Assembly (NCBI GenBank): GCA_052387675.1
Contig: JBQTIY010000001.1
Span: 93,480-157,479, forward strand
Reading direction: 5' to 3'
DNA: 64,000 nt
Source: Planctomycetota bacterium
GTDB taxonomy: Bacteria > Planctomycetota > B15-G4
The notes under the pieces were generated by a model. That model saw only the letters and a list, made by a program, of their open reading frames with translations, did no database searches and was not told the DNA's origin. This document shows, piece by piece, positions 26,933 to 64,000 of this stretch. A program made the position numbers and the translations under genes. Each line of letters opens with the position of its first letter. Position 1 is the first letter of the stretch.

Positions 26933-26940
26933 GACCCTCG

Positions 26941-27183: not shown

Positions 27184-27263
27184 GAATCGACTCTCGCGTT
27201 TCCCGGGGCTGAACTGCTCAGGAAGGAGAGCGAGAGCAGCGGCCCCCTCGGGACAGGAATTCC
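27184..27263 (-). promoter_or_regulatory. conserved 5' leader/promoter region of MshEN-like genes (GGAATTCCTGTCCC box at 27250..27263)
   Basis: GGAATTCCTGTCCC lies 80 nt upstream of the start. The same box is 76 and 79 nt upstream of the other two copies, followed by a CT-rich tract and TGAGCA. Confidence 0.45.
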
Positions 27264-36059: not shown

Positions 36060-36087
36060 CCGCCGCTCAGCGCGCTGGCTGACTTCG

Positions 36088-36332
36088 CTATCGCTTCATC
36101 CGGTTCAGAACCACCACCACAAGGTCCACCTGCTTGGGGGTCATGGCCCCCATGGCGACGAGGATCTCGCCGATCTTGCGCACGGGGCGGCCGGCGCGCG
36201 CGGCGTGCTACTGCTCGGTGAGTGCCTGGTAGAGCTGCGCGGGGCTCTGATGAGGCCCTTGAGGCACGCCTCTTCACCGAAGAGCTCCGGGTCCGACTAG
36301 CCGTCGTCCGACGACCCGATCGCAAAGGTCAC
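36088..36332 (-). pseudogene. MshEN-like mini-gene, inactivated (copy 2)
   Basis: Aligns end to end with 53958..54200 but is 245 nt rather than 243 nt. It has a 2-nt insertion (GGGGCTctGATGA) and two in-frame TAG codons (CAG to TAG in DDGQSD; AAG to TAG in TEQK). The leader is retained. Confidence 0.8.
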
Positions 36333-36408
36333 CGTTCCACCTTTCCGTTTCGGAGGCGGACTTGCTCAAGAGAGAGAGAAATCGGCTACCCCCGGGGACA
36401 GGAATTCC
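36333..36408 (-). promoter_or_regulatory. conserved leader of MshEN-like gene (GGAATTCCTGTCCC at 36395..36408)
   Basis: Near-identical to 54201..54279. Confidence 0.45.
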
Positions 36409-36487
36409 GGCGAAAGTTCCGGGGACTGCGGGGCGAGTCGGGAGGTCCAGGTCGGGCGGGTCCGCGCCTTCGGACCGCCTAGGCGAC

Positions 36488-43169: not shown

Positions 43170-43618
43170 ATGCGGCGGTCAACTGAATGCGAGCCGCACC
43201 ACGCACGCGTCGCGCCCAACACGACACCCCTCGCAAACACGCGCAGAACGGGCGATTCCTGGCCCTCGTCGCGCGGCCGGTCGCGGCGCTCGCCAAGCCT
43301 TCCCAACGCCCCGCCCGCACCCGCCTCGTTCGCACGGAGGCGATGGTTCCCCATGACCCATCCAGGTGCGAACTGGCTCGCGGTTCGAGCTTCGCAGGAA
43401 GTTTGGCCGAGACCGCACCAGGCGCGAACTCGGTCAACTCGATGAGATCCCTTGCTGAACAGGCCGTCAACTGAGCTGACATGCCACTCCGGCGGGGCTC
43501 AAAGGCAACTTCGTCTCGGCCGTGCGACCTCGAGGATCGCCAATCCCGGCCCGAATTCGTCCCGCGCAAGTTTCTGTGGGTCACACCATCATGATGATCC
43601 TCTGGTCACTCCCATTGA

Positions 43619-43654
43619 CCCCGCCAAGCACGAACTGACTCGTGCTTGGCGGGG
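43619..43654. terminator. perfect 15-bp stem / 6-nt loop hairpin (no U-tract)
   Basis: CCCCGCCAAGCACGA-actgac-TCGTGCTTGGCGGGG, 80 nt downstream of the stop of gene 43734..44747. Confidence 0.4.
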
Positions 43655-43733
43655 CGGCTCGTGGACGCGAAGGACCCGTTCTGCACGAGTTCGAAGCGAA
43701 CAACTCATCGCAGAACGCACTGGCTTCAACAAC

Positions 43734-44747
43734 TCACTTCTGACAACGCGGGTTCTCGCAAGTTCCCTTGCCGTGGGGTATCCAGCAGCCTCCGCCGACT
43801 ACGGGCTGTGCGTTGGGCGCGCTGCAAGCTGGATCGCCATCAGGATGCCAGCCCCACGGACCCTTGTGCGGCTCCGGCGGCTTTGGCACCGTCGAACCTG
43901 GCAGCGCCGGGCCCGCTGGTCCCCACACGTCATCAGACTGTCCGTAGGCGGCAGCACATGCAAGGCAAACAATTACAGCCGGAACCACTACGCCGCCGGA
44001 CCCAACAGATCCCGCACACGCCGTTAGAGCCACCCACCAAGGGCAAGGCTCAACGAACTCGAGCGCCAGGCTAGTGCCCCGGGACATCCTTTCCACTTCA
44101 GTGATGATCTGACGGTCCTGAAGCACTCGCTGGAGAAACTCCAAGAGCAGTCCATCCTCCGGAGCGCTCTGATCGATGACGTACGTTCGAGTTCTGGCAT
44201 CGGCGGACAAACGCTGGATCCCACCGACGCGCTCCACAATCTCTGGTCCATCGACGTATACCAGCAGATCCTGCGTGACACCGGCCACTCGGACCTGAAC
44301 GAACTGAATGCCAGATATCTGGCCTCCTATGACTCGGCCCACTTCCAATCCAGAGTGCCCGCGAAGAATGATGAGTGCCCCGTTTGCTGCTGGCAACGAG
44401 AAGATCTCGCCATGATCGACTCCGAATGCACTTCGCAGTCTGGCCTGAGCGTCCACTGTTACAGCATGCCCGGAGAGTGGCGATTGCTTGGGTACGACTG
44501 TTAGCGCACTTTCTGCCGCTGGCTCGACTTGCTCCGTCTCTGCGGAGCACTCACTAACGCCGCCTTGCACCGCGGTGCTGGTCGCATGATGTCTCGTGGC
44601 TGAACTCACAAGTGCACTCTCGCTTGATTCTACGGCGACCTGCCCGGTGACGGACGCCGTCGCGAGCATGGCAAGGAGAAGTGCGAGGACAACTGTCAGA
44701 CTTAAAGAACTCATGGTCTGTTCCTTTCGTAGTGAAGACTGGGTCAT
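43734..44747 (-). CDS. hypothetical exported protein with C-terminal TM and Cys-rich tail
   Basis: ORF 43734..44951 trimmed to ATG 44747 (or 44714). Signal-like LSLTVVLALLLAMLATASVTG, late TM VVVPAVIVCLACAAAYG, tail CWIPHGKGTCENPRCQK. Confidence 0.45.
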   Translation of the reverse strand: MTQSSLRKEQTMSSLSLTVVLALLLAMLATASVTGQVAVESSESALVSSATRHHATSTAVQGGVSECSAETEQVEPAAESALTVVPKQSPLSGHAVTVDAQARLRSAFGVDHGEIFSLPAANGALIILRGHSGLEVGRVIGGQISGIQFVQVRVAGVTQDLLVYVDGPEIVERVGGIQRLSADARTRTYVIDQSAPEDGLLLEFLQRVLQDRQIITEVERMSRGTSLALEFVEPCPWWVALTACAGSVGSGGVVVPAVIVCLACAAAYGQSDDVWGPAGPALPGSTVPKPPEPHKGPWGWHPDGDPACSAPNAQPVVGGGCWIPHGKGTCENPRCQK

Positions 44748-45228
44748 GAACACGTGGAGCGCGAGTAACGAGCGCTGAAAGCCGAGGAACTGCGAGCTGC
44801 ACCCGTGTGACTGGCTCGCAGCTCCTCGACCCCGTTCTCTCTCGTCCCTCACACCTGCCGAAGCCACAGAAGCACGAATGGTCAGAGGTAGTGTCGAGCA
44901 CGACTTGCTCACAGCTAACTCGACATCGACAGTACTTGCGCGTGCAATCATGTGGCTCCAACAACCGCACTCTGCACTGCAAGCCGAACGCGTGCTGACA
45001 CGAACCCGGATCGTTCCATTGCCAGTACCGAAGGCGATGGCGATACTCTGATCAGCTCACGTTGGCCAACACGCATGAACAGGCCGCCGGAACTGGAACC
45101 GCGCAGCGGCGCCATGACCGATTGGGACGGCCTCCAACCCCGAACAGCGTCACAACCCCACTGTTGACACTGGGGTGTTAACGGATTGCTGCCTGTTCAC
45201 CTGGACCGCAAAGCTGTTGTGCGTCCGG

Positions 45229-45663
45229 CTAGCTCAGGGCTATAGCGAACAGCACCAAGGGTCCAGTAGGCATTCCGCGGGGCTGCATCACCCAGTGGCG
45301 CTCGATGCCGCGATCAGAGATCGTGACCCATCCAAGCAGGTGAATCGCACCGGTCCGGGAATCGATGCGGAAGTAGTAGATCCGCGACTCACGCGGTAGC
45401 GCAGCGCTCAGCGAAGTGGCAGAAGAGCCGCTCGAGTTGGATTGATTAGAGTTGGCAGTGGACCCGCCTCCGCCGCCGGCTAGAGCCGCTGGCGGAGCCT
45501 CCGGAGCCTCTTTCGATGTCGGAGGACTTGGTGGTCCGACGGGCCGGGGCGGATAGCTCCAGTCGCCGGTCATTTGTGCTGAAGCAAGCCCGGTAAGAAC
45601 CAGGAGGGCTGACATGCTCCGAAGGATGGCAACCCAGGCAATGTGTGGAGTCTTCACGAGCAA
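45229..45663 (-). CDS. hypothetical exported protein (Pro/Ser/Gly-rich linker)
   Basis: 144 aa with signal-like MSALLVLTGLASAQ. 10-nt overlap with the upstream HTH gene. Confidence 0.4.
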   Translation of the reverse strand: MLVKTPHIAWVAILRSMSALLVLTGLASAQMTGDWSYPPRPVGPPSPPTSKEAPEAPPAALAGGGGGSTANSNQSNSSGSSATSLSAALPRESRIYYFRIDSRTGAIHLLGWVTISDRGIERHWVMQPRGMPTGPLVLFAIALS

Positions 45664-46616
45664 CTTCCTTTCATCGAGATAGCCAGGCGTTCAAAAAGCT
45701 GAGGCTGACAATGACGCCAATGTGAGAACACACGCTCGGTCGTTTGCGTCTGGAGGACATAGATGACATGCGCGTTGTAGACAGCAATGGCTTGTTGAGC
45801 AGCCTTTTCCGACCAGGCACAAGCTCCGGACCAGCCGCGTTCGAACATGCGATCAACAACTCGAACGAGATTGGTCCAGTGGCCGTGTGTCGTTGCTTGC
45901 GGGCTGCGACAGACTTCAAGCAGCCCGGTCATTCCAGCGTCGACCAATTCACTGGACTGCTGAAACATGCCGATCTGAATGCGCGCGAAGGAAGCGTAGC
46001 CAAGGGCACGATGTTCGCCAGCCACACGAAACTCATCTTGAGCATCCTGTAAGATGCACGACTCCAACTCGCCGATACGCCGCAACGTATCGCGCAAGAG
46101 ATCCGGCGAGGCTACCGAGAAATCAGCGCGCGAAGCGCTGCAGCCCAATGTGAGCAAGCAGTTAGTAGCCATCGGCGCGCGAACACGCAACGGCGCCGAT
46201 AGCGAATGAGCACAGAGCTCGGCGCTGAGCGAGAGAGCCGTTAACGGTTCGTACTTCTGCTCGTCTAGCAGTGTCTCACAGCGGGACGCATGGTTGTAGA
46301 ACCACACCAGGACATCGTCACTAGGATCTGCTGAGGCCGGAATCGGTGCGACCAGCGGGACTTCATCGATCACGCAACACCGGCGCTCGATCAGCTCGAC
46401 GATTCGCCACGTCTTTGGACGACCGACCAAGGGCTGAATCGTCCCGTTCAGGAACTTCGTCAGGCTGGGTCGCGGCACTCCAAGATGATCGGCCAAGCGA
46501 TCCTGACTATTGTGACCTCGCTCCATCCATCGCTGGGCAAGTGATCGAGCATTCTCGATGCGGGTCTTCTGGAAGCTGCTCAACACCACGTTTCGGCGAA
46601 ATACTCGCGAACTCAT
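45654..46616 (-). CDS. HTH-domain protein with helical C-terminal domain (putative regulator)
   Basis: Trimmed to ATG 46616 (MSSRVFRRN). SQDRLADHLGVPRPSLTKFLNG is an XRE-like HTH. The remainder is not recognised. Confidence 0.45.
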   Translation of the reverse strand: MSSRVFRRNVVLSSFQKTRIENARSLAQRWMERGHNSQDRLADHLGVPRPSLTKFLNGTIQPLVGRPKTWRIVELIERRCCVIDEVPLVAPIPASADPSDDVLVWFYNHASRCETLLDEQKYEPLTALSLSAELCAHSLSAPLRVRAPMATNCLLTLGCSASRADFSVASPDLLRDTLRRIGELESCILQDAQDEFRVAGEHRALGYASFARIQIGMFQQSSELVDAGMTGLLEVCRSPQATTHGHWTNLVRVVDRMFERGWSGACAWSEKAAQQAIAVYNAHVIYVLQTQTTERVFSHWRHCQPQLFERLAISMKGSCS

Positions 46617-46821
46617 CGGTGCACCTCCCGGCCATTCGGGTTTGGCCGATGGGTGGAGGCTACAACCAGCTCTTAGGTAACGGGGAACCATCTTGGTTCA
46701 GAGCTGGGTCTGTGGCAAACGCGCTGTCGTGGGAATACCGACACACTCGGAACTACTTTCGAGACACAGGTGTGACGGCTGGACAGACCGTTCCGCGTGA
46801 CTACAATCATCCTAGTAACCC

Positions 46822-46901
46822 GCGCGTGCTCTTCCAGAGATCGCCGCCCCGGTGGGCGGCTGCCAGGCCGGTTCCAAGCGAGCACGCGCACAACGACGGA
46901 C
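46822..46901. repeat. 80-nt intergenic repeat, copy A
   Basis: 72/80 identical to 48908..48987 by manual alignment. Contains the hairpin GCCGCCC-cggt-GGGCGGC. Confidence 0.7.
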
Positions 46902-47112
46902 CCCCACGAAGGGCCCGCAGCTTGGAACCGCCATGACCCTGCCCCCCTACCGCGCCGGCCCGAAACGGTTCCGATGAGCGCCCTGCGAGGCTCGCTCTGC
47001 CGTCGCCAGCTACTCCAGCTCGAGCTGGATCGTGCCGCCCGACTTCACGACGAGCGCTGTCTCCGCGGCACCCTCCGCACCGGGCTCCCTACCCGCCGCC
47101 TGCTCGTCAAGA

Positions 47113-48720
47113 CTAGGGGTGCCCGACCTCCACTGGTACAGGCTGGTGACTCGGCGGAGGCAACGCACCACCGTAGGCGGATGGTGTACCAGCCGTGACA
47201 CCACCCGAACCGATTGACGGCGTAGCTGACGCAGGCAGTTCACCAAGCACGAGCCCATTCTTGAACACCCAGAGGCCCTGCCAGCTCGCGTCATTGGCCA
47301 CTGCAGCATTAATAAGTCCGGCATCCGGTGGCACAGGCTGACACGAGTACGAAGCAAAGCCGTCCACAGGCAGTGTCAAGGTGTCCGAGATCCAGGTCCA
47401 CTCGAACCCCGCGAGTACACCGATTGGATTTCCTTGAGCCGCCCCTGGAGGAACGGCGACCAGGAACGTCTTGAATGTGTACCGCGCCTGTTCACCACAG
47501 GCTCCGCTCCACGACGGAGCATCCAGGAAGTAGGACCACTTGCCTTCAAGATGAGGTGGTGGAAATGGCCAGCTAGGCACGCCGTGATTCCAGACGGTTT
47601 CGCTCCAGTAAAGGGGAGTCGCGTCAGGCACCAAGAATCCGGGAGCCCCCCCGCAGTTCACGGCGCTCGAGATCGTGGGATCAATGCCTGGCAGTGAACC
47701 GATTGAGAAGTGCTCCAACTGCGGCACCCCGTTGAGTTGGTACTCCGTCATGACCTGAACCCATTGGACATCGTAGTTCTTATCGAGTCGTCCCCACTCT
47801 TGAGCGAAGTAGAAGCGCGCGCCCATGCTTCCTTCGAGCAGGCTCGTCGCCGGCTCGATCAACCCAATAACCTGAGTCATTGAAATCCCGGCTTGCGAGA
47901 CAGGTGCACGAACCACGATTGGGTCGAAGCTACAGTCCGGATCCGTCTGTAGGAAGTCGATGTCGTAGCGAATACTGAGCTCGGCCCAGGCCGGTGGCGT
48001 TGGACCCGCAAAGACCGAGGCCCCACTCAGCATGAGGTACGGCAGAGGTGCAGGGCCCGTCACGTGATAGTAGGTGCCCTGCAGCCCAAGTGGCGAGAGA
48101 TCGAAGAGGGCATTCTCGAACGGATCGGTCCAAGTGACGACGAAGTTGTGGTTTGTGGAGTAGTTCGGGTAGGCACAGATGCTGGCAGGGGCCGAGGGGA
48201 CCGCAGGCTGACCCGTTGGAAGTCCAAGCACGCATCCGTAACCCACTGGCGCGGCGGTTGACGAGCCTCCCACTTCCGCAGTCACAGTCTCTCGTCCATG
48301 CCAATGCGCCACTGGCTGAAGGGGCAGATCGGGAATCGGACCGGCGACCCAAACATCGATCGCTGGCCTCACCATGATTCCGTAGGTGGCAAACTGCGGA
48401 AGCGTCTGCTGGGTTGCTTCGAGAAGGAAATGGACCGTCAGGCTCTGTCCATCCCGTGTCGTAGTCACGATCAGACTGGCGATGTGACCGAAGACCGGGT
48501 CCACAACTTCATGCGTTATGGATTGATCTCCCACCATGCACGTGCTCTGAATCTCGCCGTAACCGCCTGAAGGCAGCTTGTCAATGTTGGCGTTGATCCG
48601 CAGTACCACGTCGCCCGGATGCGGTGTCACCTGCGGCGGCTGCGCACTGAGTTGGGCGACACCAAAGACTGCAGTCGCTGCCGTCAGGGACACGGCACGA
48701 CAAAGTCGTGAACGCTTCAT
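47113..48720 (-). CDS. hypothetical secreted protein
   Basis: Trimmed to ATG 48720 (MKRSRLCRAVSLTAATAVFGVAQLSAQ signal peptide). 535 aa, rich in Pro/Trp/Gly, no family recognised. Confidence 0.5.
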   Translation of the reverse strand: MKRSRLCRAVSLTAATAVFGVAQLSAQPPQVTPHPGDVVLRINANIDKLPSGGYGEIQSTCMVGDQSITHEVVDPVFGHIASLIVTTTRDGQSLTVHFLLEATQQTLPQFATYGIMVRPAIDVWVAGPIPDLPLQPVAHWHGRETVTAEVGGSSTAAPVGYGCVLGLPTGQPAVPSAPASICAYPNYSTNHNFVVTWTDPFENALFDLSPLGLQGTYYHVTGPAPLPYLMLSGASVFAGPTPPAWAELSIRYDIDFLQTDPDCSFDPIVVRAPVSQAGISMTQVIGLIEPATSLLEGSMGARFYFAQEWGRLDKNYDVQWVQVMTEYQLNGVPQLEHFSIGSLPGIDPTISSAVNCGGAPGFLVPDATPLYWSETVWNHGVPSWPFPPPHLEGKWSYFLDAPSWSGACGEQARYTFKTFLVAVPPGAAQGNPIGVLAGFEWTWISDTLTLPVDGFASYSCQPVPPDAGLINAAVANDASWQGLWVFKNGLVLGELPASATPSIGSGGVTAGTPSAYGGALPPPSHQPVPVEVGHP

Positions 48721-48907
48721 GATCGACACCTCTCTAGCCAGGTCATCGAGGATTGACGTCGGTAGGGTAAACGCCCGAGCCCATTCCGACACCGAGGCAT
48801 CCCGAACGCCACAAAGACGACGGAGAGTTCTGCGCGGGGAGTGGCTCACAGATTGCCCTCCTCCGGTTTGTCGAAGAGCGCGGCTTCGTTACAATCCACC
48901 CAACTCA

Positions 48908-48987
48908 GCGCGTGCTCTTCGAGAGGTGGTCGCCCAGGCGGGCGGCTGCCAGGCCGGTTCCAAGCAAGCCCGCGCACAACGACGGAC
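48908..48987. repeat. 80-nt intergenic repeat, copy B
   Basis: See copy A. Both copies lie about 190-280 nt upstream of a minus-strand gene start (46616 and 48720). Confidence 0.7.
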
Positions 48988-49130
48988 GCCTCGCCGCGAT
49001 GCAAGCGCTGGGCTGGACCGAGTGCGACATCGTCAAGCGACTCATGCACAGGGCTGGCGCGCATTGATGATGACTCTCGCGTTCATCGAGTTCGCGAAAT
49101 ACTTCCGCATCCTTCGATGCGGTCGGGACA

Positions 49131-51401
49131 TTAGTCGTGCGCAACTGCCTCGGCCGCAGCAAGTACCAACATGCTTGTGGAGTACACGCGCCCGCCATAG
49201 TCACCCCACGGATCGTTCCATGGGTCCCAGGAACCTGCACGCTCGCCGGTCACCATGACTTGTTCGATAAGCACTCGGCTGAGGTCTCGCTTCCACATTG
49301 CCCACTCAAAGCCACCGCGCCGAGCCATGGATTCCGTGGCCCGCAGCCAGTAGTAGAAATCGCGCCGACCCTCAAAGTCGTCTGCCCAGATCGGCGGCAG
49401 ATCGAGCATGAGACCCATTCCCTTCTCGATGAGTTCCTTATTCCCGGAACGCTCTTGAGCAGGGTCGGCGATCAACCGGCACAGTACGCCCACGGCCGTC
49501 ATTGATTCGCTCTGGTCGGGAGGCCAATTTTCCATCATGACACCCTGCACTCGAGCAACGCTCCCGTCGCGGGAGCTGTATCCGGCTCGTCCGGAAGCCG
49601 GGTCGGTAAGTTCTTCAATGAACACAAGAGCGTCTTCGAGCGCCTGTGCCAGCGCCTTGCCATCGACTTCCAGATTCGACACGCGCGCCTTTGCGACGAC
49701 CTGAACGGCCCACCCCGTGACGGAGACGTCATTGCGATAAGTTTCCCGCGCGTTCTCCGCTGGCCAGTAGCGCCATGCTTCGTTCCGGTTGCGAAGATCA
49801 AGAACCTGCTTCACGGCCCTCCGAGCGGGTCCGCGCAGATGATCCGTCCCTTCATAGGACAAGGCTTCAAGCATCGCCAAGGTCGCAATGATGTGGTCGT
49901 AGGTGCTACCCAGAGCCTTTGGGTTTGCGAGGTTTCCGTCCGGCGACTGACCACGCGCCAAGCGCTCCAGGCCAGCCCTCACGACAGGCGCGTACAGACC
50001 TTCCTGTGGGCCATGGCCACTGCGTAGAAAGCAGAGCAACGCCAGCCCGGTGACGCCCACGTCATGCTGTAGATATCCGAGGCCCATGCAAATCGTGTCG
50101 TCGCCCAACTCTCCGCACGCGACATCAAAGGAACCGCACGACCAGCCTCCCTGCAAGTCCGCGTGCATCGCAAGCCAGACGAGCCCCAAATCCCGCACGA
50201 GAGTGAGCGCCGGTCGTACGTCATTATTGAGTCGATTGCGCACTGTCGCGCTCACGATTCGGTTCTTGCCGTTCACAGCCTGCTTCGCCTTCTTGGCCGC
50301 AGCGGGAAACGCAGATCTGAGCGCCTCGGCCTGCTTGCTGATCTCGGCACGGATCATCTCCTGCCCCAGGGAGGCGCGCGTCGTCTTCCCACCACTCGAA
50401 GCCAGAAGTGCAGCAGCCTCGACAAGCAGAGCATCGATCTCCTTGAGCCGCTCCTCGACAGCAAGACGATCCAGCTCATCCGTAAGCATCGGCTTGGCCT
50501 TGGCATACCAGTACGTCGCGCGATAGAGAGAGCTCCGCTTTACCGCACCAGATTGCTCCCTTCCGAATTGCAACCAGAGCTGACCCAGGTCGCGTTGCCT
50601 CACTGCGTCAGCGGGCTGCTCTTGCTCAAGTAACCCAATGCGTCTGAGCGCAAGGTCCGCTGAGAGAGCGAGATGAGCAGTACCCTTGGCGAAATCGCCC
50701 AGCACGAAGCAGAGGTACCAACCGACGCTGTGGTTCGCTGCTTCGTCCTGCGGCTCGCTCTTGAGCTTCTCAAGCGCTGGCTGGACCCGCAGGTACTCGG
50801 CAAGTCCGGCTTGAGCCTGATCCCAGCGGGTGAACAGTGACTCGTCCGCAGACTCGACGATGACGCGCTTCAGTGCGTCACACAGTTTCGTTGCACTAGC
50901 GGCATCACCGGAAGCGAGAGCCTCCTCCACGAGGTTCAGTCCAGCGCCCGCTATTGAACCGACCTCATCAACTGGCGCATTGCGAGCAATGCTCAGAAAC
51001 GCCTCGATCCTCAGTTCACGAGCATCAACCAAGTACCGCCCGTCGAGTTGCTCTATGGCCTCGTAGGCAACATCCAGGCGAAACGCCTCACTGGACAACT
51101 GACGGGCTTGCTCCAGCAGGACATAGACTCCGACAGAAGCGCCTGAGGATGAGCTCGTCGCAGCCGCGAGCAGTCTCTGCGCGAGTTCCAATCGCTTGGC
51201 AGCCGACTCAAGATCAGCGTAGTAGGTCGGATAGACCTCTTCCTTGAGCTTCTTGAGAGCGAGATCGCATGCTTCCGCGTTGGGCACGGGCACTTTGTCC
51301 TGCATGCCTGCGTGTGCAACGGCGCAGAGAGCCACCCAGTGCGAGCTAAGGCAGAGCGCAATCAGGCCAGTAGTGACAATGCCCAAGCTCTTCACTGCCA
51401 A
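49131..51401 (-). CDS. exported protein with helical-repeat N-half and prenyltransferase/terpenoid-cyclase-like alpha/alpha-toroid C-half
   Basis: 756 aa with a signal-like N-terminus. The C-half has repeats such as LQGGWSCG, GQSPDGNLANP, NEAWRYWP and SVTGWAVQ, reminiscent of prenyltransferase / squalene-cyclase beta-type repeats. Confidence 0.4.
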   Translation of the reverse strand: MAVKSLGIVTTGLIALCLSSHWVALCAVAHAGMQDKVPVPNAEACDLALKKLKEEVYPTYYADLESAAKRLELAQRLLAAATSSSSGASVGVYVLLEQARQLSSEAFRLDVAYEAIEQLDGRYLVDARELRIEAFLSIARNAPVDEVGSIAGAGLNLVEEALASGDAASATKLCDALKRVIVESADESLFTRWDQAQAGLAEYLRVQPALEKLKSEPQDEAANHSVGWYLCFVLGDFAKGTAHLALSADLALRRIGLLEQEQPADAVRQRDLGQLWLQFGREQSGAVKRSSLYRATYWYAKAKPMLTDELDRLAVEERLKEIDALLVEAAALLASSGGKTTRASLGQEMIRAEISKQAEALRSAFPAAAKKAKQAVNGKNRIVSATVRNRLNNDVRPALTLVRDLGLVWLAMHADLQGGWSCGSFDVACGELGDDTICMGLGYLQHDVGVTGLALLCFLRSGHGPQEGLYAPVVRAGLERLARGQSPDGNLANPKALGSTYDHIIATLAMLEALSYEGTDHLRGPARRAVKQVLDLRNRNEAWRYWPAENARETYRNDVSVTGWAVQVVAKARVSNLEVDGKALAQALEDALVFIEELTDPASGRAGYSSRDGSVARVQGVMMENWPPDQSESMTAVGVLCRLIADPAQERSGNKELIEKGMGLMLDLPPIWADDFEGRRDFYYWLRATESMARRGGFEWAMWKRDLSRVLIEQVMVTGERAGSWDPWNDPWGDYGGRVYSTSMLVLAAAEAVAHD

Positions 51402-51581
51402 GTCCTCCTAGGTTTTCGCGAGGATATCAAACCTCTTCATGACCTAACTTGTGCCTCTCAAGGTCTCAATCAAGAGCGGAGCGAAGCCTCTCTCCGATCA
51501 CCATCGATCCCTGCCAACGGACGCTCGGCCTCTAGGAGTTGCAGCATTCGCCGGCTCGGCGGTCAGTTCGCGGCGTGACTC

Positions 51582-51821
51582 GTGGCAGATAAGAGATGCC
51601 TGCGGATCGCGCAGCACATCGACTCCACCGCGCTCGTGGACTACCGCGACGCCTCCCGCCGTCTCGGCATCAGCGCGCCCCAACTCACGCACTACATAGC
51701 CCTGCTCGACCTCGCCGCGCCGATCCAGGAGGACATCTTGTTCGGAAGGATCGATGTGCCGGAGCGGACGCTGCGGCCGATCGTCGCCAACGCGCGCTGG
51801 TGCGACCAGCAAGCGGAATGA
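51582..51821 (+). CDS. ParB-like HTH fragment (possible gene remnant)
   Basis: 79 aa, GTG start. RRLGISAPQLTHYIALLDLAAPIQEDILFGRIDVPERTLRPI resembles the ParB/KorB HTH-plus-linker segment. There is no N-terminal ParB/Srx domain. Confidence 0.35.
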   Translation: MADKRCLRIAQHIDSTALVDYRDASRRLGISAPQLTHYIALLDLAAPIQEDILFGRIDVPERTLRPIVANARWCDQQAE

Positions 51822-51822
51822 A

Positions 51823-53055
51823 CTAGCGATCCTGCTTTGGGTCGCCCGTCACGATCTCCGTAGCAGCCGTTCCGTACTCCCCAAACTCGTCCTTCGGGTT
51901 CACGAGAAGGATGATCCTGCAGTCTCCCTTGCCGTAGTCCACGCAGATTGTGCCCCCACGGTGAATCGCAACGAGGGCATGGCTCTTCGCATCAAAGATT
52001 CCACCCCCCGAGTAACCCGTGAAGGAACTCAAGGAATGCCACAACACTCCATCCTTGAAGTAACCGCGTCCCCCAGACGACATGGCCAGAGACGTGCCGA
52101 ACGGATACCCCAGCATGTAGACATCGCTGCTCGCTGGGGTCGAGGGCGTCGCCGAAACGAGAGCAGGTACGAGCCCTGGGAAGGCCGCCTCCAACTCGAG
52201 AATCGCCCAGTCCAAGCGTGACGCGGCTGTAGCTGATGCCTCGATGGACTTGACCCGACGGACTTGATCCGACGTGAAAACGTGAGAGTTTGCTCGCGTC
52301 TGAAATCCAATGATGCAAACGAGGCGCTGCACATTTGGCCCGACCAGGTTTTGAACGACATGGAGCGCTGTTGCAACGCTGGTCGGTCGCACGACCACGC
52401 CCGTACCGCTGCGCTGCCAGTCCTTGACATGCGGTTGGAGGGCGAAGGCTCCACTCGGATCGGAGTCTCCTGGGCAGAGGTTCATCGGATCGAGAGCTAG
52501 CACCCAGTGCTTCTCAGGCTCTCGCCACGTGACCATGTTCTCCGCGACGATGAGGCACGTCGCCAAGAGGTTCCTCTTGAGCGGCTCCGGTGTGCTGGGC
52601 TCGAGCGAAATGCGCGTCACCGGCGAAGTCCGGCGGAACCCAGCCGGGCGGACCCTCACGTCCTCCGTGAGTTGGTGGAGCAGGGTGCGTGTCGGGATTC
52701 GTTGCAGAACTTCACCAGTCGTGGCGGGCTGCTGCTGGATCATGGGTTGGCCAACAGCCGACTCAGCAAGCTGATCAAGCTGCGTAGCAATTCCAGGCTG
52801 GGCTGCCTGCCACGAGGACCTGTCCAGCACCTGCAACTCGCCGCGCCGCTCCAACTCTGCCACGACCAGCTCTGCTTCCAGGCTCTGCACGAACGCCGCC
52901 GCAGCGGGTGGTGGTTCAATCGCTGCCAACTGCGCCGACTCCGGTTCTCTGGCAGAGCAGGCGACGACCATCAGGACGCACACAAGGGCTAATGAGGACC
53001 GTATTGCGCGTCCGTCCGTCACGCACCATCTCAGCAGGCTACGAGCCCGAGGCAT
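51823..53055 (-). CDS. lipoprotein with C-terminal trypsin-like (S1) serine protease domain
   Basis: Candidate triad TALHVV (His), DWAILEL (Asp), TGYSGGGIF (Ser). Lipobox-like LMVVACS. The start is uncertain (ATG 53055, or GTG 53022 to avoid overlap with the upstream gene). Confidence 0.6.
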   Translation of the reverse strand: MPRARSLLRWCVTDGRAIRSSLALVCVLMVVACSAREPESAQLAAIEPPPAAAAFVQSLEAELVVAELERRGELQVLDRSSWQAAQPGIATQLDQLAESAVGQPMIQQQPATTGEVLQRIPTRTLLHQLTEDVRVRPAGFRRTSPVTRISLEPSTPEPLKRNLLATCLIVAENMVTWREPEKHWVLALDPMNLCPGDSDPSGAFALQPHVKDWQRSGTGVVVRPTSVATALHVVQNLVGPNVQRLVCIIGFQTRANSHVFTSDQVRRVKSIEASATAASRLDWAILELEAAFPGLVPALVSATPSTPASSDVYMLGYPFGTSLAMSSGGRGYFKDGVLWHSLSSFTGYSGGGIFDAKSHALVAIHRGGTICVDYGKGDCRIILLVNPKDEFGEYGTAATEIVTGDPKQDR

Positions 53056-53950
53056 TGGTCGCCTTGTCAAGTCGGCTTGCAACCTCCGCAGCGAGTCGAT
53101 CGACAAACTCCTTTGCATTCGATGGATCACGCTCGGTCACCGTCACTCGGAGCCAGTAGTTTCCTTTTCCCTTCACGCCCAAGGGCGTCTCTGACACTGG
53201 GACCCCGAGGAACCATCCAGCTGGCTCGAGATTCCGGACGGTCGTGCCCAACTGTTGACCCTTGCTGTCGAAGGAACAGTCGGCGAGTGAAGTCCTTCCG
53301 AACTGGCCGTCCTTCTTTGACCAGAACCCTTCCATCTGTACGCGAACGCGGATGTCGGCTCTATCTCCAGTATCCAGAGCCCAGATCCACAGCGCGGTCC
53401 AGAACGTGCGAGGATCAAAGTGCAGGATCTTCGCCTTGGCGCGGGTGAGGTGCACGTAAGCCGGTTGAATCATGAGGGCCGTCTTGTCGTCGGAAGGTTT
53501 GAAGAGACAGATCAAGTCCAGATCCGTATCGCCTTCGACGCGGTTCTCGGTGTAACGCCGAAGGCGGAAACCTCGATGCAGTTGATCCTGGCCGCCACTT
53601 GTCCAGAATCCCTGCAGTGCCCTTCCGACCGAGTACTGGGCCTCGTAGGTCGCAGCTTCGTCAGCGAAAGCCTGCTTCACGGCATCGACGGCATACGCCA
53701 CCGCGGCTGCCATCAGGGAGGACGTACCAGCCTGGTCAACAATACGGTCCCTCTCTTCAAGCTTTCCCTCATCAACGAGCTTAGAGATGTTCTCAGCCGT
53801 CAGCGGCTCCAGAACCAGTCGCTCGTCGTCGGTCGCCTGAGAAGCTGGGTGCGCAGGCAGTAGTGCGTTGCAGCCCGCGAGGACAACGACAATGACGAGT
53901 GCGACACACTTGCTCAATCCGAACCTCCGCTCCTTCAAGAGATCACGCAA
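53039..53950 (-). CDS. lipoprotein, unknown function
   Basis: 303 aa. CVALVIVVVLAGCN is a lipobox. No family recognised. Lies immediately upstream of the S1 protease gene. Confidence 0.5.
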   Translation of the reverse strand: MRDLLKERRFGLSKCVALVIVVVLAGCNALLPAHPASQATDDERLVLEPLTAENISKLVDEGKLEERDRIVDQAGTSSLMAAAVAYAVDAVKQAFADEAATYEAQYSVGRALQGFWTSGGQDQLHRGFRLRRYTENRVEGDTDLDLICLFKPSDDKTALMIQPAYVHLTRAKAKILHFDPRTFWTALWIWALDTGDRADIRVRVQMEGFWSKKDGQFGRTSLADCSFDSKGQQLGTTVRNLEPAGWFLGVPVSETPLGVKGKGNYWLRVTVTERDPSNAKEFVDRLAAEVASRLDKATNASGS

Positions 53951-53957
53951 TCCGACG

Positions 53958-54200
53958 CTACAGCTTCATCCGGTTCAGCACCACCAGCACCAGATCCACC
54001 TGCTTGGGGGTCATGGCCCCCATGGCGACGAGGATCTCGCCGATCTTGCGGGCGGGGCGGGCGGCGCGCTGGTCGGCCTTCTGCTCGGTGAGCGCCTGGT
54101 AGAGCTGCGCGGGGCTGATGAAGCCCTTGAGGCAGGCCACTTCACCGAAGAGTTCCGGGTCCGACTGGCCGTCGTCTGACGACCCGATGCCGAAGGTCAC
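53958..54200 (-). CDS. stand-alone MshEN/T2SSE_N-like mini-protein (copy 3)
   Basis: 80 aa with a GTG start preceded by GGAAAGGTGGA. Contains LFGEVACLKGFISPAQLYQALTEQ and RKIGEILVAMGAMTPKQVDLVLVVL. Confidence 0.6.
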   Translation of the reverse strand: MTFGIGSSDDGQSDPELFGEVACLKGFISPAQLYQALTEQKADQRAARPARKIGEILVAMGAMTPKQVDLVLVVLNRMKL

Positions 54201-54279
54201 CGTTCCACCTTTCCGTTCCGGAGGCGAGCCTGCTCAAGAAAGAGAGCGAGAAATCGGCAACCCCCGGGACAGGAATTCC
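54201..54279 (-). promoter_or_regulatory. conserved leader of MshEN-like gene (GGAATTCCTGTCCC at 54266..54279)
   Basis: Same box and spacing as at 27250 and 36395. Confidence 0.45.
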
Positions 54280-54368
54280 GTGGTCACAGGAAAATTCTTG
54301 GTGCCGGGCCGGTGAGTGGCGGCCGCGCGCGCCGCGGCGGGAAGGCAGAACCAGCGCCCCGCTGCGTG

Positions 54369-59838: not shown

Positions 59839-61347
59839 TCAACCACGCCCGTCTGCATCCTGCTTCGTCGAGTTCAGCCGGCGAGAGATTCTCGCAAACT
59901 GCTCCAGCGCTGTTTCGAGTTCGTCTACGATTTCGGCGGCGATTATGTCGGGAGCCGGCAGCGAATCCGTGTCGGTCAGGCTCTGGTCCTTGATCCAGAA
60001 CAGATCGAGGCTGAGTTTGTCGCGCTTGAGGATTTCGTCGTAGGTGTAGCAGCGCCAGCGGCCGTCGGGGTTCGCTTCAGTCCAGGTAGGCTTGCGTCTG
60101 TGAATGGCACTGGGCTTGTAGCACTTGACGAACTCATCGAAGTCCTGCCGTGTGATGGGCGATTGTTTTTGTGTGAAGTGCTTGTTCGTCCGCAGGTCAT
60201 AGACCCACAGCTTCTCCGTCCACGGCGCGGGGCGGCCCTCCTTCTTGTCAAAGAAGAGGACGTTTGCCTTTACGCCTGGCGAGTACCAGATGCCGGTTGG
60301 AAGGCGGAGCAGCGTGTGGATATTGCATTTCTCTAGCAGATTGCGCCGGACCTTCTCACCTGCGCCGCCTTCAAACAGGACGTTGTCTGGCAGCACCACG
60401 GCGGCGCGCCCATTGATCTTGAGCAGCGAGAACATGTGCTGCACGAAGTTGAGCTGCTTGTTGCTCGTTTCCGTCCAGAAGTCCTCACGCACAACCACGG
60501 CGTCGTCCTTCTCAGTGTCGCCCTCCTCGTTCACGAAAAGCACGCTCTGGCTTTTCCCAAAGGGGGGATTGGCCAAAATCATCGTGTACTCCTTACTCCA
60601 CGGCGCGGCGAGACTGTCATGACCGGAATGGACCACAACCTTGTCGCCGCCGATGCCGTGCAGATAGAGGTTCATCGCGCACATGCGGCCAACCTTGGGC
60701 GAGAGTTCCATCGCCTCGACGAGTTCTTCGCGCAGCGCACGCTTCTCTTCGGCGTGCAAGTCCTTACCGAACTTGGAGAGCACATAGTTGTAGGCGTTGA
60801 AAAGGAAGCCGCCCGTACCCGCCGCCGGATCGCAAATGCGGTCCTGCGGTGAGGGCTGCATCACTTCCACCATCGTCTGGATGACGGCGCGAGTCGTGAA
60901 GTACTGCCCCGCGCCCTTGGTGGACTCCGACGCGCTGCGCTGAAGCAGTTCCTCGTAGATTGTCCCCTTCACGTCCACGGGCAAACTCATCCAATCCTCT
61001 TTGTCGATGAGGTTCACGATGAGCTGCTTCAACAGCGCGGGATTGTGAATGTCGCACCGCGCGCCCTTGAAAATGACGCCGAGCATTCCGGGCCTGAGAC
61101 CGAGCTTCTCGATGGAGTCGCTGTATTGCTTCTCTAGCGCCGCACCATCAAGCGGCAGCAAGGCTTTCCAGCCGAGTTCCGGCGGCACGATGGGTTTCTG
61201 ATTGTAAGGCGCCTCGGTGAGCTGGTCGGCCATCTTGAGGAAGAGCAGCATCGTGAGCTGCTCCACATACTCCACACAGGAGAGACCGGCCTGTTGAAGG
61301 ACCCCGGCATAGCTCCAGGCTCGTTTGCCGATCTGGGATGCGTCCAT
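59839..61347 (-). CDS. hsdM: Type I restriction-modification system methyltransferase subunit
   Basis: 502 aa. HsdM_N-like N-terminus (VEYVEQLTMLLFLKMAD), the SAM motif DPAAGTGGFL and the catalytic ILANPPFG. Confidence 0.9.
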   Translation of the reverse strand: MDASQIGKRAWSYAGVLQQAGLSCVEYVEQLTMLLFLKMADQLTEAPYNQKPIVPPELGWKALLPLDGAALEKQYSDSIEKLGLRPGMLGVIFKGARCDIHNPALLKQLIVNLIDKEDWMSLPVDVKGTIYEELLQRSASESTKGAGQYFTTRAVIQTMVEVMQPSPQDRICDPAAGTGGFLFNAYNYVLSKFGKDLHAEEKRALREELVEAMELSPKVGRMCAMNLYLHGIGGDKVVVHSGHDSLAAPWSKEYTMILANPPFGKSQSVLFVNEEGDTEKDDAVVVREDFWTETSNKQLNFVQHMFSLLKINGRAAVVLPDNVLFEGGAGEKVRRNLLEKCNIHTLLRLPTGIWYSPGVKANVLFFDKKEGRPAPWTEKLWVYDLRTNKHFTQKQSPITRQDFDEFVKCYKPSAIHRRKPTWTEANPDGRWRCYTYDEILKRDKLSLDLFWIKDQSLTDTDSLPAPDIIAAEIVDELETALEQFARISRRLNSTKQDADGRG

Positions 61348-61361
61348 GGATCGTCGCTCCG

Positions 61362-62969
61362 TTAGTGCTTGCCGACGCGGGTGCGCGACTGCCTAGCTTT
61401 GGGCTTCGCCCCCTTCGCAGCCTGGGCCTGCCGGGCGCGTATCTCGCGCTCAGCCGTGATGCGTTTAAGCAGTTCGCTCGCGGGTTCGTCATTCGGGTCT
61501 TGCGGAACGAGCTGGCCGGTGAATGCGTGGCGAAGGATGCTTTGCCGCATCAAATGCGTGCTACTCAGCTTCACTTCGAGATTACTTTCAAGGTGATCAA
61601 TCACGGAGAGCTGGTCTTCCACGGCTTCAACGATGGCGGCTTGCTCGGCAATTGGTGGAAGCGAGAAAACGAAGTCGTTTAGCTGCGACGTGAACATATG
61701 CTGAATGAGGCTTCCGGTGTTTAGCTCCGCGACGAATGCTCGGAAGCGAGATGACTTAAAGAGCCAGAGCATGAAGCGTGGGTTCACTTCAATCGGCGTG
61801 AGTCGAGCCAGTCGCTGGTTGAGCAAACAGTGCTCGCCGGGAGAGGTCAAGCACACGCGTCCGAGGAAATCGTCCTTCAAAGACTGCGCTGTGAGGTTTA
61901 TGACTAGCTCGCCTTCACCCACCAAGTGATCGGGCGAGTGATCCGCGTAGTCCGGCGACATACAGCGCGTGTTGCGCTCGTTCCACCCGATGTACCCATT
62001 CGAGTAGAGATTCCCAGGACGGAGCAGTCTGACGCCCGCCGTTTGGTATTCCGCGCTCGGAAATGGTCGTCCATTCTGAGACATCCCAACTTGCTGCCAA
62101 GCCGCCCAGCACCACCTCTCCGGTAGCGGCGGGAGGTTGGTGCTGTCGGGCGCGACGGGTGCTGGGTACTTTTGTCTCCAGTCATTGGGAGGGGCCTTGC
62201 CGGCAGCTTCGAACTTTGCGAGCTGACTTTCTTCCCAGCGGCGGCGGCGTTCGGTCAGGATGCGGGCGAGTAGGGCGGAGGCGGGTTCGGTGGCTGAATG
62301 CTGCGCGCGCCACTCGGCGGTCAACGCACCTTCCACCGCCGCCTTGAGCACGGTGGCCCGGTACTGCTTCAGCTTCACCCGCACTCGCTCTAACGCCGCC
62401 ACTCCCGCGTCGAGGTCGGAGAGGAGTTCGTCGAGTGTGTCAGCGATGCGCTCTTGTTCACTCGGCGGTGGAACAATCAAAGGCACCGATTGCGCTAATG
62501 GCTCGGCGGCAATGCTCGCCTGATTGACGTGGTGCTTGCACCGATGTCGGAAATAACCCGACATCCAGAGGTAGTGAAGTTGGCGAGCAACGAATGCCGG
62601 ATTCATGCCGCTCTCGAGTCGGATCCGAGTCATGTGATTGGAGAACGCGAGTGGAGAACTGGTCGGAATCACGGTCGTCTTTCCGATAAGCTCAGGGCTA
62701 TTCGTGTTGTTGAAGAGAACGTCTCCCGCTACCAGCGTCTTAGGTACTTCGCCCTCAACTGATTTCACTTCGGACAGATCGAAGCGGCCCTCGCGGTCGA
62801 TATTCATCGGGCGAATGTGAGGAACGCCGCGTCCCTCGGAGTTGTGAGCGCCACTGGGAAAGCCGGATGTGACCGACTCCGCGATACTCGCGATCGCACA
62901 AGTCATCCAACCGTCCGGAATCGGCGCAGCGCGCATCGGATAGTGGGCGAACACCAGACCTTCGCTCAC
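61362..62969 (-). CDS. hsdS: Type I restriction-modification system specificity subunit
   Basis: 535 aa. Two target-recognition domains separated by conserved helices (PPPSEQERIADTLDELLSDLDAG...; LPPIAEQAAIVEAVEDQLSVIDHLE...). Confidence 0.85.
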   Translation of the reverse strand: MSEGLVFAHYPMRAAPIPDGWMTCAIASIAESVTSGFPSGAHNSEGRGVPHIRPMNIDREGRFDLSEVKSVEGEVPKTLVAGDVLFNNTNSPELIGKTTVIPTSSPLAFSNHMTRIRLESGMNPAFVARQLHYLWMSGYFRHRCKHHVNQASIAAEPLAQSVPLIVPPPSEQERIADTLDELLSDLDAGVAALERVRVKLKQYRATVLKAAVEGALTAEWRAQHSATEPASALLARILTERRRRWEESQLAKFEAAGKAPPNDWRQKYPAPVAPDSTNLPPLPERWCWAAWQQVGMSQNGRPFPSAEYQTAGVRLLRPGNLYSNGYIGWNERNTRCMSPDYADHSPDHLVGEGELVINLTAQSLKDDFLGRVCLTSPGEHCLLNQRLARLTPIEVNPRFMLWLFKSSRFRAFVAELNTGSLIQHMFTSQLNDFVFSLPPIAEQAAIVEAVEDQLSVIDHLESNLEVKLSSTHLMRQSILRHAFTGQLVPQDPNDEPASELLKRITAEREIRARQAQAAKGAKPKARQSRTRVGKH

Positions 62970-64000
62970 GCCGCCAATCCTTCATTCAACTCTGCAAGCA
63001 GTGGCTGGAGCTGGTTACCGAAGACCTTGAAGGCGCGGCCATAGCCGCCCTGCTGGCCAAACCAGCCGTCTTGGAACGCATCGGGCTCGATGGCGAGGCT
63101 GGTGCCGATGTGCTCGGCCATGCGGTCAAGCCATTCGCGCTGCTCGCCGGTGAATGTCGCCCCGGACTTCTCCTTGTGCCGGATCCATTCGAGGTATTTC
63201 AGGCGCACTTCCCAGGCGAAGGGTTCGAGCGGCGCGGCGGGCACAATGGCATGGCGAACGAGGGAAACGAGGTCGGCAAGCTGGTCGCCGGGGTGTGCGG
63301 TGCCCGGCACGACTTCGGCTACTTTTGCGGCCTCCACGATCTCAAACGCGCGCCAGAGCTGCGTTGGGGTGGCGGCGAGCGGCGGTGTGGCAAGCGCGTC
63401 CCGCAACAGGCGGAGGTCCTTCAGCGAGAGCTTGAGCGGCTTTGTACCGGAGTAGAGCACTTGCAGGGCGGTGAGATGGTCCTTGTTTGCGGCAATCCAC
63501 GCGCGGAAGTCCTGTACCTTCGCCCGCGCTTTCTCCACGGCGGAGGCGTCGAAGCCGGAGAACGTCACTGTGTCAATCGTATGCCGGTCAATGGTCTGCT
63601 CGTTCTGCGCACGGATCTCGAGGATTCGGCGGCGGAGCGCGGCCTTGAGCAGCGGTGCAACGGCCTGTTGCGCGAGCCGCTCCGTGGCCTGGGCAATCTG
63701 CGGCTCAGTCGGATGCCCGGTGCCGAACTGGAGCTTCGCAGCGTCAATTTGCGCATCGGCATCGCAGGCGCGCATGAGATCGGCGGAAAGGTCCGGCAGA
63801 GACTTGCCCCCGGCGAGTTCGCGCAACTCGGCAAGTTGGGCCGGAGTAACTTCCCGCTGAAGCCGCGCGAGACGACCAGCCAGCGTGGTGAGCTCCTCCG
63901 CATCGGTTCCACCCTGGCCAACGTATTCCAGCAGCTGTTGCAGCGTGGCGGAGGGCTTGCGGTTGAGCGTGTGGGAATCCGTCTTGTCCTGCTCGCAGAC
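62966..64000 (-). CDS. hsdR: Type I restriction enzyme R subunit, C-terminal part (5' end beyond right window edge)
   Basis: The reading frame stays open to position 64000; the ORF track starts it at an internal TTG (63826). The C-terminal region (TVTFSGFDASAVEKARAKVQDFRAWIAANKDHLTALQVLY...) resembles the EcoEI-type HsdR C-terminal domain. 4-nt overlap with the hsdS start. Confidence 0.7.
   Translation of the reverse strand, partial: VCEQDKTDSHTLNRKPSATLQQLLEYVGQGGTDAEELTTLAGRLARLQREVTPAQLAELRELAGGKSLPDLSADLMRACDADAQIDAAKLQFGTGHPTEPQIAQATERLAQQAVAPLLKAALRRRILEIRAQNEQTIDRHTIDTVTFSGFDASAVEKARAKVQDFRAWIAANKDHLTALQVLYSGTKPLKLSLKDLRLLRDALATPPLAATPTQLWRAFEIVEAAKVAEVVPGTAHPGDQLADLVSLVRHAIVPAAPLEPFAWEVRLKYLEWIRHKEKSGATFTGEQREWLDRMAEHIGTSLAIEPDAFQDGWFGQQGGYGRAFKVFGNQLQPLLAELNEGLAA

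Follow-up and report, generated by a model that had tools for sequence, protein, structure and literature searches.

A lower-G+C segment of exported-protein genes on a Planctomycetota contig and its lipoprotein-peptidase cassette

Described inhibitor-peptidase pairs and the g7-g6 cassette

In the pairings of Inh/AprI with serralysins and of staphostatins with staphopains, an operon-encoded inhibitor beside the peptidase, acting in the periplasm or inside the cell, protects the producer. The emfourin-protealysin pair is a further inhibitor-peptidase operon (PMC9505478), and the potempins of Tannerella forsythia are outer-membrane lipoproteins whose genes lie directly upstream of, and are co-transcribed with, those of secreted peptidases (PMC9890683). 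This report concerns a locus of similar layout in a 64,000-nucleotide (nt) stretch of a Planctomycetota metagenome-assembled genome (MAG); the whole stretch is referred to as the window. Positions 43590-53955 form a segment of lower G+C content with seven minus-strand genes, named g1 to g7 from left to right, of which g7 encodes a predicted lipoprotein and g6 a serine peptidase of family S1. The g7-g6 pair is the sole conserved linkage in the segment. The features of the locus, and the contexts in which relatives of g7 occur, are collected in Table 1.

The potempin/KLIKK-peptidase system (Ksiazek et al. 2022) is the closest analogue of g7-g6. In both cases a lipoprotein gene adjoins a secreted-peptidase gene with which it is apparently co-transcribed, the stop and start codons overlapping or lying a few bases apart. 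The partners of the g7 family also span serine and metallo classes (S1, S8 and M10 among others). Potempins inhibit S1, S8 and metallo-peptidases via loops inserted in the active site, which protects the surface of the producer (PMC9890683); variable loops are likewise the candidate specificity element of the g7 family, whose cassettes behave as accessory genes. In other respects the two systems differ. Potempins have 98-132 residues, adopt an oligonucleotide/oligosaccharide-binding (OB) fold or eight-stranded barrels, share 4-14% mutual identity and are confined to Tannerella (PMC9890683), whereas the model of g7, a protein of about 300 residues, combines a beta-sandwich and a long C-terminal helix, and its family is a single, sequence-coherent one present in several groups. 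In addition, the gene order of g7 cassettes is sometimes reversed. No potempin occurs among the Foldseek matches of g7 against the Protein Data Bank (PDB), in which deposited potempin structures are expected, though not confirmed, to be present. A homology of g7 to potempins was ruled out by size, fold and the lack of a structural match.

Inh/AprI, emfourin and the staphostatins resemble g7 in being dedicated small partners encoded beside a peptidase. Each of them, however, is associated with a single peptidase family, and no lipoprotein of the g7 fold is among them; the g7 family has links to six peptidase families or more. Trypco1 and Trypco2, a family of unknown function, are defined by co-occurrence with trypsin-like peptidases in vWA-MoxR conflict systems (Kaur et al. 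2020, PMC7159879). They are cytoplasmic parts of NTPase-centred ternary systems, in contrast to g7, which bears a lipobox and pairs also with non-trypsin peptidases. A Trypco identity for g7 was rejected: no such match was obtained at E <= 0.1 in Pfam, on the assumption that it holds Trypco models, the sole signal at that threshold being a weak match to DUF7537, and there are no vWA or MoxR neighbours.

Relatives of g7 were collected in a HMMER scan of 1.84 billion representative proteins, with g4, g7 and g1 joined in one query. About 135 of the 150 best representatives align to g7 (23-38% identity, ~290-400 amino acids (aa)), and the family is spread over Planctomycetota, Verrucomicrobiaceae, and soil and marine metagenomes; a scan of genome contigs for g7 relatives gave one locus. 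The lipobox cysteine is kept in essentially all full-length members, where it is followed by (F/L)LPxHxxS, and the family motifs are C-x2-3-LPAHxxS, YEAQ, AKAKVL and VTERDPSNAK. The spacing from LPAH to YEAQ ranges from 66 to 120 residues and is variable in sequence; this stretch coincides with a disordered loop. In an AlphaFold2 model of g7 based on a 62-sequence alignment (predicted local distance difference test (pLDDT) 88.5; predicted template modelling score (pTM) 0.85), disorder is limited to this hypervariable loop, aa 59-74. Conserved polar residues (R121, K163, E262, D264 and the VTERDPSNAK motif) lie in the body of the protein, outside the loop.

Searches for described counterparts of this family gave little. 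When 62 members were compared with Pfam and NCBIfam, no family model was found and two isolated weak matches were the only ones; in Pfam, 1 of the 62 matched a model at all. The best Foldseek match of the model in the PDB has E = 2.6e-3 with a template modelling (TM) score below 0.2, nothing in the PDB or BFVD exceeds a TM score of 0.3, and a profile search against PDB sequences returned nothing. As judged from the alignments, g7 is a member of a large, sequence-coherent and uncurated family of predicted lipoproteins with no structural match.

The contexts of g7-family genes were compared at 15 independent loci, the window included. A recognised peptidase adjoins the g7-family gene in nine of them, and these peptidases represent S1, S8, M10, M36, C11 and neprosin. 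For nine of 14 contexts, L017 having been added later, the binomial probability is 2e-7 under an assumed and generous background of 8% per locus. The g7 family is genetically linked to secreted endopeptidases of six unrelated families and is often translationally coupled to them. In the window, L006, L012 and L015 the stop codon of one gene overlaps, or almost overlaps, the start codon of the next, and a co-oriented adjacent peptidase, as in the window, recurs in L002, L004, L006, L013 and L015. In the window g7 stops at 53039 and g6 starts at 53055 or 53022, so that the two codons either overlap or lie 16 nt apart.

The peptidase itself matches Trypsin_2 in Pfam with E = 3e-12. Its counterpart after the closest g7 homologue, in the forest-soil locus L002, is 31% identical over 342 aa, and this alignment includes the N-terminal region of about 200 aa, which is conserved. 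The His and a Ser-containing GYSGGG motif are common to both; the Asp column is not cleanly aligned. Since the L002 peptidase is a full-length homologue of g6, the g7-g6 pair appears to have been inherited together. The start of g7 lies 40 nt past the stop of a small MshEN-like gene (copy 3 in Table 1), behind a GGAG-rich site, and g7-g6 is therefore probably co-transcribed with this upstream gene from its promoter.

Table 1. Features of the segment and its surroundings, with positions in the window, followed by the loci (L and P numbers) in which g7-family genes were found.
Feature	Position	Strand	Description
g1	43734-44714	minus	326 aa; signal peptide, predicted transmembrane segment, Cys/Pro/Gly-rich tail
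g2	45229-45657	minus	142 aa; exported, Pro/Ser-rich; start overlaps g3 stop by 4 nt
g3 (ACT4PU_00565)	45654-46616	minus	cytoplasmic; weak XRE-type helix-turn-helix (HTH) and ~220-aa domain without known family
g4 (ACT4PU_00570)	47113-48720	minus	535 aa; secreted
g5 (ACT4PU_00575)	49131-51395	minus	754 aa; secreted; helical N-terminal half and alpha/alpha toroid
ParB-like open reading frame (ORF)	51582-51821	plus	79 aa; in GC-richer spacer (0.64-0.66)
g6	51823-53055	minus	lipoprotein S1 (Trypsin_2, V8-like) serine peptidase; own lipobox
g7 (ACT4PU_00590)	53039-53917	minus	292-aa lipoprotein; lipobox ...VVLAGC/NALLPAH
Hairpin	43619-43654	minus	perfect 15-bp stem, 6-nt loop; ~80 nt downstream of g1 stop
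MshEN-like unit, copy 1	26939-27263	minus	78% identical
MshEN-like unit, middle copy	36086-36409	minus	88% identical; pseudogene with in-frame stops
MshEN-like unit, copy 3	53956-54280	minus	325 bp: 80-aa ORF and ~80 bp of upstream DNA
83-nt repeat, copy A	46822-46904		209 nt after g4 stop, ~205 nt before g3 start
83-nt repeat, copy B	48908-48990		141 nt after g5 stop, ~190 nt before g4 start
Sigma70-like site before copy A	46780-46807	plus	TGGACA-16-TACAAT
Sigma70-like site before copy B	48868-48895	plus	TTGTCG-16-TACAAT
Type I restriction-modification system	59839-64000	minus	HsdM 59839-61392; HsdS 61362-62981; HsdR C-terminus from 62966
Window			S1 peptidase g6 downstream of g7
L002 (forest soil)			Trypsin_2 downstream of g7 homologue; g6 homologue
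L004/L009 (Verrucomicrobiaceae MAG)			S1A trypsin downstream, unrelated to g6
L013 (1-12972)/L014			Trypsin_2 downstream of g7 homologue
L015 (88-6981)/L016			five-gene operon: S8, S1, 136-aa protein, M10, g7 homologue (last)
L005 (Tara)			M36 immediately upstream of g7 homologue
L006			M10/astacin-like upstream, S8 downstream
L010			C11 clostripain, convergent
P0023 contig			neprosin, divergent
L008			beta-lactamase-family serine hydrolase neighbour; not among the nine peptidase contexts
L012, L007, L003, P0009 contig			neighbours without known family, or truncated
L017 (1-14978)			phage tail-collar-domain gene neighbour; small ORFs, HTH_3 gene, TrwC relaxase; no recognisable peptidase

Possible inhibitor, client or adaptor roles for g7

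The role that we favour for g7, tentatively and a little short of even confidence, is that of a membrane-anchored inhibitor of g6 in which the hypervariable loop would act as the specificity element. The cassette would supply an S1 endopeptidase together with its partner, both lipid-anchored and produced at matched levels. Tuned to the linked peptidase, the loop would fill the active-site cleft, and g7 would shield the envelope of the producer until the peptidase is released, after the fashion of potempins and KLIKK peptidases. A number of points speak against such a role. Much is asked of a single 30-kDa scaffold if it is to inhibit peptidases of the serine, metallo and cysteine classes. Six of the 15 contexts have no recognised peptidase, and L017 offers a phage-collar-domain neighbour instead. 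Furthermore, the g7 homologue lies downstream, not upstream, of the peptidase in the M10 and M36 cases, and the sample of contexts is small and opportunistic.

The range of partners bears equally on a rather unlikely alternative, in which g7 is a dedicated client of the peptidase: a latent lipoprotein that would be activated or shed when the endopeptidase cuts its exposed variable loop. Endoproteolysis is the sole property common to the S1, S8, M10, M36, C11 and neprosin partners, so a client role would give the simplest account of why catalytic class does not matter. The architecture of g7 would also suit cleavage, in that a disordered loop of variable length separates the N-terminal strand, which bears the lipid anchor, from the conserved body. 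The position of the conserved polar residues in that body suggests that the function is common to the family and does not depend on the partner. On the other hand, enzyme-inhibitor or immunity pairs are the more typical setting for translational coupling and matched stoichiometry, and the potempins, as the best-studied system of equal layout, are inhibitory (PMC9890683). Likewise, Foldseek comparisons with the PDB and BFVD revealed no toxin-like or pore-forming fold for g7.

Lipoprotein adaptors of periplasmic proteases, such as NlpI for Prc and LbcA for CtpA, are established biology. By analogy, g7 might tether or target secreted hydrolases at the outer membrane, an adaptor or anchor role that would suit its lipobox and the diversity of the adjacent hydrolases, which include the beta-lactamase-family enzyme of L008. 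We consider this improbable. As g6 carries a lipobox of its own, it needs no anchor, and one conserved body is unlikely to bind six unrelated folds. In addition, the known lipoprotein adaptors are, to our knowledge, tetratricopeptide repeat proteins specific for S41 peptidases.

A wider proposal extends the inhibitor role to the family and is possible, if on the doubtful side. The g7 family would comprise new and widespread peptidase-partner lipoproteins of a fold unlike any solved, whose loop inhibits, or is processed by, at least six peptidase families; it would extend the principle of the Tannerella-only potempins to Planctomycetota, Verrucomicrobiota and environmental bacteria, and its cassette would be mobile. 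Whether inhibitors or obligatory clients, g7 proteins would then form a new family, of inhibitors or of partners, whose fold is likewise new. Were the proposal true, the scaffold would be one whose lone loop is redirected to peptidases of the serine, metallo and cysteine classes, and the family could be used as a genomic marker of secreted proteolytic weaponry in poorly studied phyla. The logic of the potempins, by which each secreted peptidase comes with a co-transcribed lipoprotein as a shield, would be general in diderms and not the peculiarity of one oral pathogen. The segment as a whole is an ordinary accessory patch; what merits attention in it is the g7-g6 cassette, a variant of the lipoprotein-plus-secreted-peptidase theme.

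Composition, unity and origin of the segment

A reading of the window from its sequence alone had pointed to a lower-G+C segment with shifted codon usage and seven co-oriented minus-strand genes, mostly exported and without housekeeping identity. Each of these observations was borne out. The G+C content is 0.605 in the segment, compared with 0.680 for positions 1-43589 and 0.629 for the right flank. All ten 1-kb intervals between 44 and 54 kb (mean 0.604) fall below every one of 50 comparison intervals (mean 0.677; Mann-Whitney p = 7e-7), which lie outside 44-54 kb and leave out the block of the type I restriction-modification (R-M) system at 59-63 kb. G+C at third codon positions (GC3) is 0.60-0.71 in g1-g7 and about 0.78-0.90 in the flanking genes. 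A signal peptide or lipobox is visible on g1, g2, g4, g5, g6 and g7. Gene starts were picked by ribosome-binding sites and signal peptides, those of g4, g5 and g7 being confirmed by exact NCBI protein matches; the g3, g4, g5 and g7 proteins match one Planctomycetota bacterium MAG (ACT4PU locus tags, 314-kb contig). None of the seven has a paralogue elsewhere in the window.

When normalised for base composition, the tetranucleotide signature of the segment (r = 0.81-0.85) differs mildly from that of the adjacent 35-43 kb (0.84-0.87), so the signal is mainly one of G+C and not of a foreign oligonucleotide signature. The intergenic spacers are richer in G+C than the genes (0.70 at 46800-47099, 0.65 at 48750-49049 and 0.64-0.66 at 51450-51899), which is the reverse of the usual pattern. 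Such spacers would fit remnants of host-type sequence, for example the ParB-like ORF, left between inserted genes; they hold no detectable relic of other window genes.

On balance, we read the segment as an accessory, compositionally foreign patchwork of independent pieces, and not as one system, with g7-g6 as a proposed cassette of a peptidase and its lipoprotein inhibitor. It is described as a mosaic because its gene set is conserved nowhere and because gaps of 280-500 bp separate the genes at four of six junctions (g1/g2, g3/g4, g4/g5 and g5/g6). The earlier expectation that the segment is not conserved core also agrees with the searches, in which nothing like the seven-gene set was found elsewhere. 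Beside the cassette, the remaining genes would be unrelated cargo: g5 a secreted toroid without catalytic function, g4 a secreted protein that has a surface domain in common with others, and g1-g3 three genes without family match, one of them with an HTH.

The sequence-only reading had instead raised the idea of an envelope, defence or interaction module with its own regulator. Such a module, in which all seven genes would be co-regulated under the HTH protein g3, is quite unlikely. It would accord with the common orientation and uniformly low G+C of g1-g7, the overlaps of g3 with g2 and of g7 with g6, the type I R-M system 5 kb away, and a pair of 83-nt elements in the g3/g4 and g4/g5 spacers that could be shared regulatory sites. 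The genes do not travel together, however: homologues of g5 sit in two unrelated neighbourhoods without recognisable counterparts of g4, g6 and g7, g7-g6 pairs occur without g1-g5, g1 and g3 are orphans, and the C-terminus of g4 is shared with unrelated proteins. Long spacers, richer in G+C than the genes, part the units from one another. Neither PADLOC nor PHROGs gave a system-level match. A defence role found no specific support, as PADLOC matches g6 only, at E >= 3e-5 and over the trypsin fold (PDC-M35A, LmuA, RT-protease), and the other six genes not at all.

Within the patchwork reading, pieces of the segment would have arrived by horizontal transfer from donors of lower G+C, probably other planctomycetes or verrucomicrobia, either long ago or by a route that leaves no integrase or att repeats. 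Piecemeal acquisition is favoured because cassettes of g7 and a peptidase in other genomes have a lower G+C than the DNA around them (0.524 vs 0.607 in L004; 0.620 vs 0.668 in L005), because L013 and L017 have mobile-type neighbours, and because the g5 homologue of locus L001 has a host-like GC3 of 0.857, compared with 0.67 for g5 here. The surroundings of L013 hold Terminase_4, an N6/N4 methylase, two PLD-family genes and a TIR_2 gene. The mobile ancestry that had been supposed for the segment is plausible from its composition and from these contexts of g7 homologues, but it is not shown at the segment itself. The evidence that counts against acquisition is as follows. No integrase or transposase domain, the absence of which the first reading had also noted, occurs in any ORF scanned (the seven genes and the spacer ORFs, against Pfam, NCBIfam and PHROGs). 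The only tRNA in the window, at 13355-13432, is not beside the segment, and there are no credible flanking direct repeats, the best being a 16-nt pair at chance level. The tetranucleotide signature, moreover, is barely distinct from that of 35-43 kb, which leaves room for a native, weakly expressed, fast-evolving region.

A native origin of this kind, with lineage-specific genes for secreted proteins whose low GC3 would reflect relaxed codon selection or mutational bias, is nevertheless rather doubtful. The lack of mobility genes and att-like repeats and the nearness in tetranucleotide usage to neighbouring DNA would be expected of it; so would the general compositional heterogeneity of the window and the fact that relatives of g5 are known from Planctomycetota-like contigs alone. 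It sits poorly with a GC3 drop of 0.15-0.2 that is sharp, extends evenly over seven unrelated genes and stops exactly at the boundary of a repeated unit, with spacers that keep a host-like G+C, and with g7 cassettes that are GC-poor against their flanks in other genomes and present on mobile elements.

The repeated unit at the right border, together with the MAG source of the contig, also raises the prospect of an assembly or binning chimera in which the low-GC block stems from another organism. This is very improbable. Although the unit is present three times in the window, an identity of 78-88% among its copies is too low to have confused an assembler. No repeat lies at the left border, the contig has a length of 314 kb, and the closest relatives of g5 are planctomycete-like proteins.

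With genomic islands and integron arrays the segment shares an atypical composition, co-oriented cargo without known function and short homologous elements between genes. It differs from them in the lack of an integrase, a tRNA and a flanking repeat, in having two 83-nt repeats only, and in genes far larger than cassettes. An integron cassette array was rejected, the 83-nt repeats having by eye no RYYYAAC/GTTRRRY (R''/R') cores and the segment no IntI. A phage or plasmid ancestry was likewise set aside: PHROGs gave one weak match over the trypsin fold, no plasmid or phage matched the ParB-like ORF in tblastn, and neither the g7 family nor an exact match to the 26-nt core of the 83-nt repeat was found in IMG/VR.

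Other genes, borders and repeats

The relatives of g4 in the HMMER scan align over aa 266-516 alone, which makes the N-terminal half an orphan. They are multidomain proteins with FG-GAP, PKD or dockerin modules, or with PEP-CTERM-like tails. The model of g4 is confident for a C-terminal beta-sandwich alone (about aa 266-500), with pLDDT below 50 in the N-terminal half, and the sandwich has no match in the PDB. On this basis the C-terminal domain of g4 is a predicted extracellular beta-sandwich domain that is so far uncurated. Motifs of the domain (window positions 47113-47920; proteins P0032-P0148) are LDxxYDFRWINV, LPAIDP, PFYY and TYLVA.

Apart from a Planctomycetota MAG protein to which it is 100% identical, g5 has three full-length homologues only (43-46% identity) among 5.8 billion proteins. 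The L001 homologue lies between a pst/phoU operon and an amino-acid catabolic operon, and a second neighbourhood holds FG-GAP, DUF7948, UppS and HxlR genes. Counterparts of g4, g6 and g7 are absent from both, as judged by gene length and Pfam content. One of the g5-homologue neighbourhoods (P0002) includes an unannotated 322-aa protein. A profile of the g5 family matches residues 399-569 of squalene-hopene cyclase with E = 8.8e-11, and g5 resembles class II terpene cyclases (SQHop_cyclase_C) in a homologous alpha/alpha toroid. Those enzymes have a two-domain beta-gamma architecture, whereas in g5 one toroid (~350 aa) is preceded by a signal peptide and a helical N-terminal domain. No DxDD, DDxxD or CxEQ (thioester) motif is present in g5. 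In view of the missing DxDD and DDxxD motifs, the toroid is most likely a non-catalytic binding module.

For g1, the same full HMMER scan gave zero homologues, and g1 itself is not in the library. Exact look-ups of its ORF, which spans 326-405 codons (43734-44951), gave no hit for any version, and the deposited annotation apparently lacks a call for this gene. No match to g2 was obtained in Pfam, NCBIfam, PADLOC or PHROGs. The HTH of g3 is a weak match to Pfam HTH_3 (E = 0.03), and in a word-based search g3 matches itself alone; the start given by NCBI yields 309 aa, 11 residues fewer than the start at 46616. The ParB-like fragment noted in the first reading exists as an ORF, but its similarity is below threshold, with HTH_ParB at E = 0.028 and 15.0 bits against a Pfam gathering cut-off of 22.6. 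It is possibly a gene remnant.

Two further features of that reading, a perfect 15-bp hairpin and two repeats of about 80 nt, are real. The left border of the segment lies near the hairpin, past g1, and the hairpin is likely the end of the g1 transcript; no U-tract follows it. The right border (53955/53956) is the exact end of copy 3 of the MshEN-like unit, whose 80-aa ORF contains two MshEN-like motifs for binding cyclic di-GMP. Copies 1 and 3 of this unit each follow a large secreted-protein gene.

The 83-nt repeats are 89% identical between copies A and B. Each is preceded by a sigma70-like site of which the TACAAT box and the position are conserved and the spacer sequence is not; these are two of four such matches in 12 kb. 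The sites suggest paralogous plus-strand transcription units, which would approach g4 and g5 from their 3' sides in antisense orientation. Structured RNA was rejected as an explanation of the repeats, there being no Rfam match at E <= 1 and folding z-scores of -0.8 to -1.3 on either strand, and so was coding sequence, the nine differences being even over the three codon positions and nearly all non-synonymous. Antisense promoters, shared operators and relics are the candidates for their nature. A plus-strand frame over copy B (48816-49067) weakly resembles the MshEN-like protein (tblastn E = 0.085, 27% over 80 aa) and may be a degraded inverted copy of it, or a chance similarity.

A second block of low G+C (0.57-0.61 at 59-63 kb) lies 5 kb beyond the right border and corresponds to the type I R-M system, so the segment is not the sole atypical stretch of the window. 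Everything between 43.5 and 64 kb may belong to one variable region.

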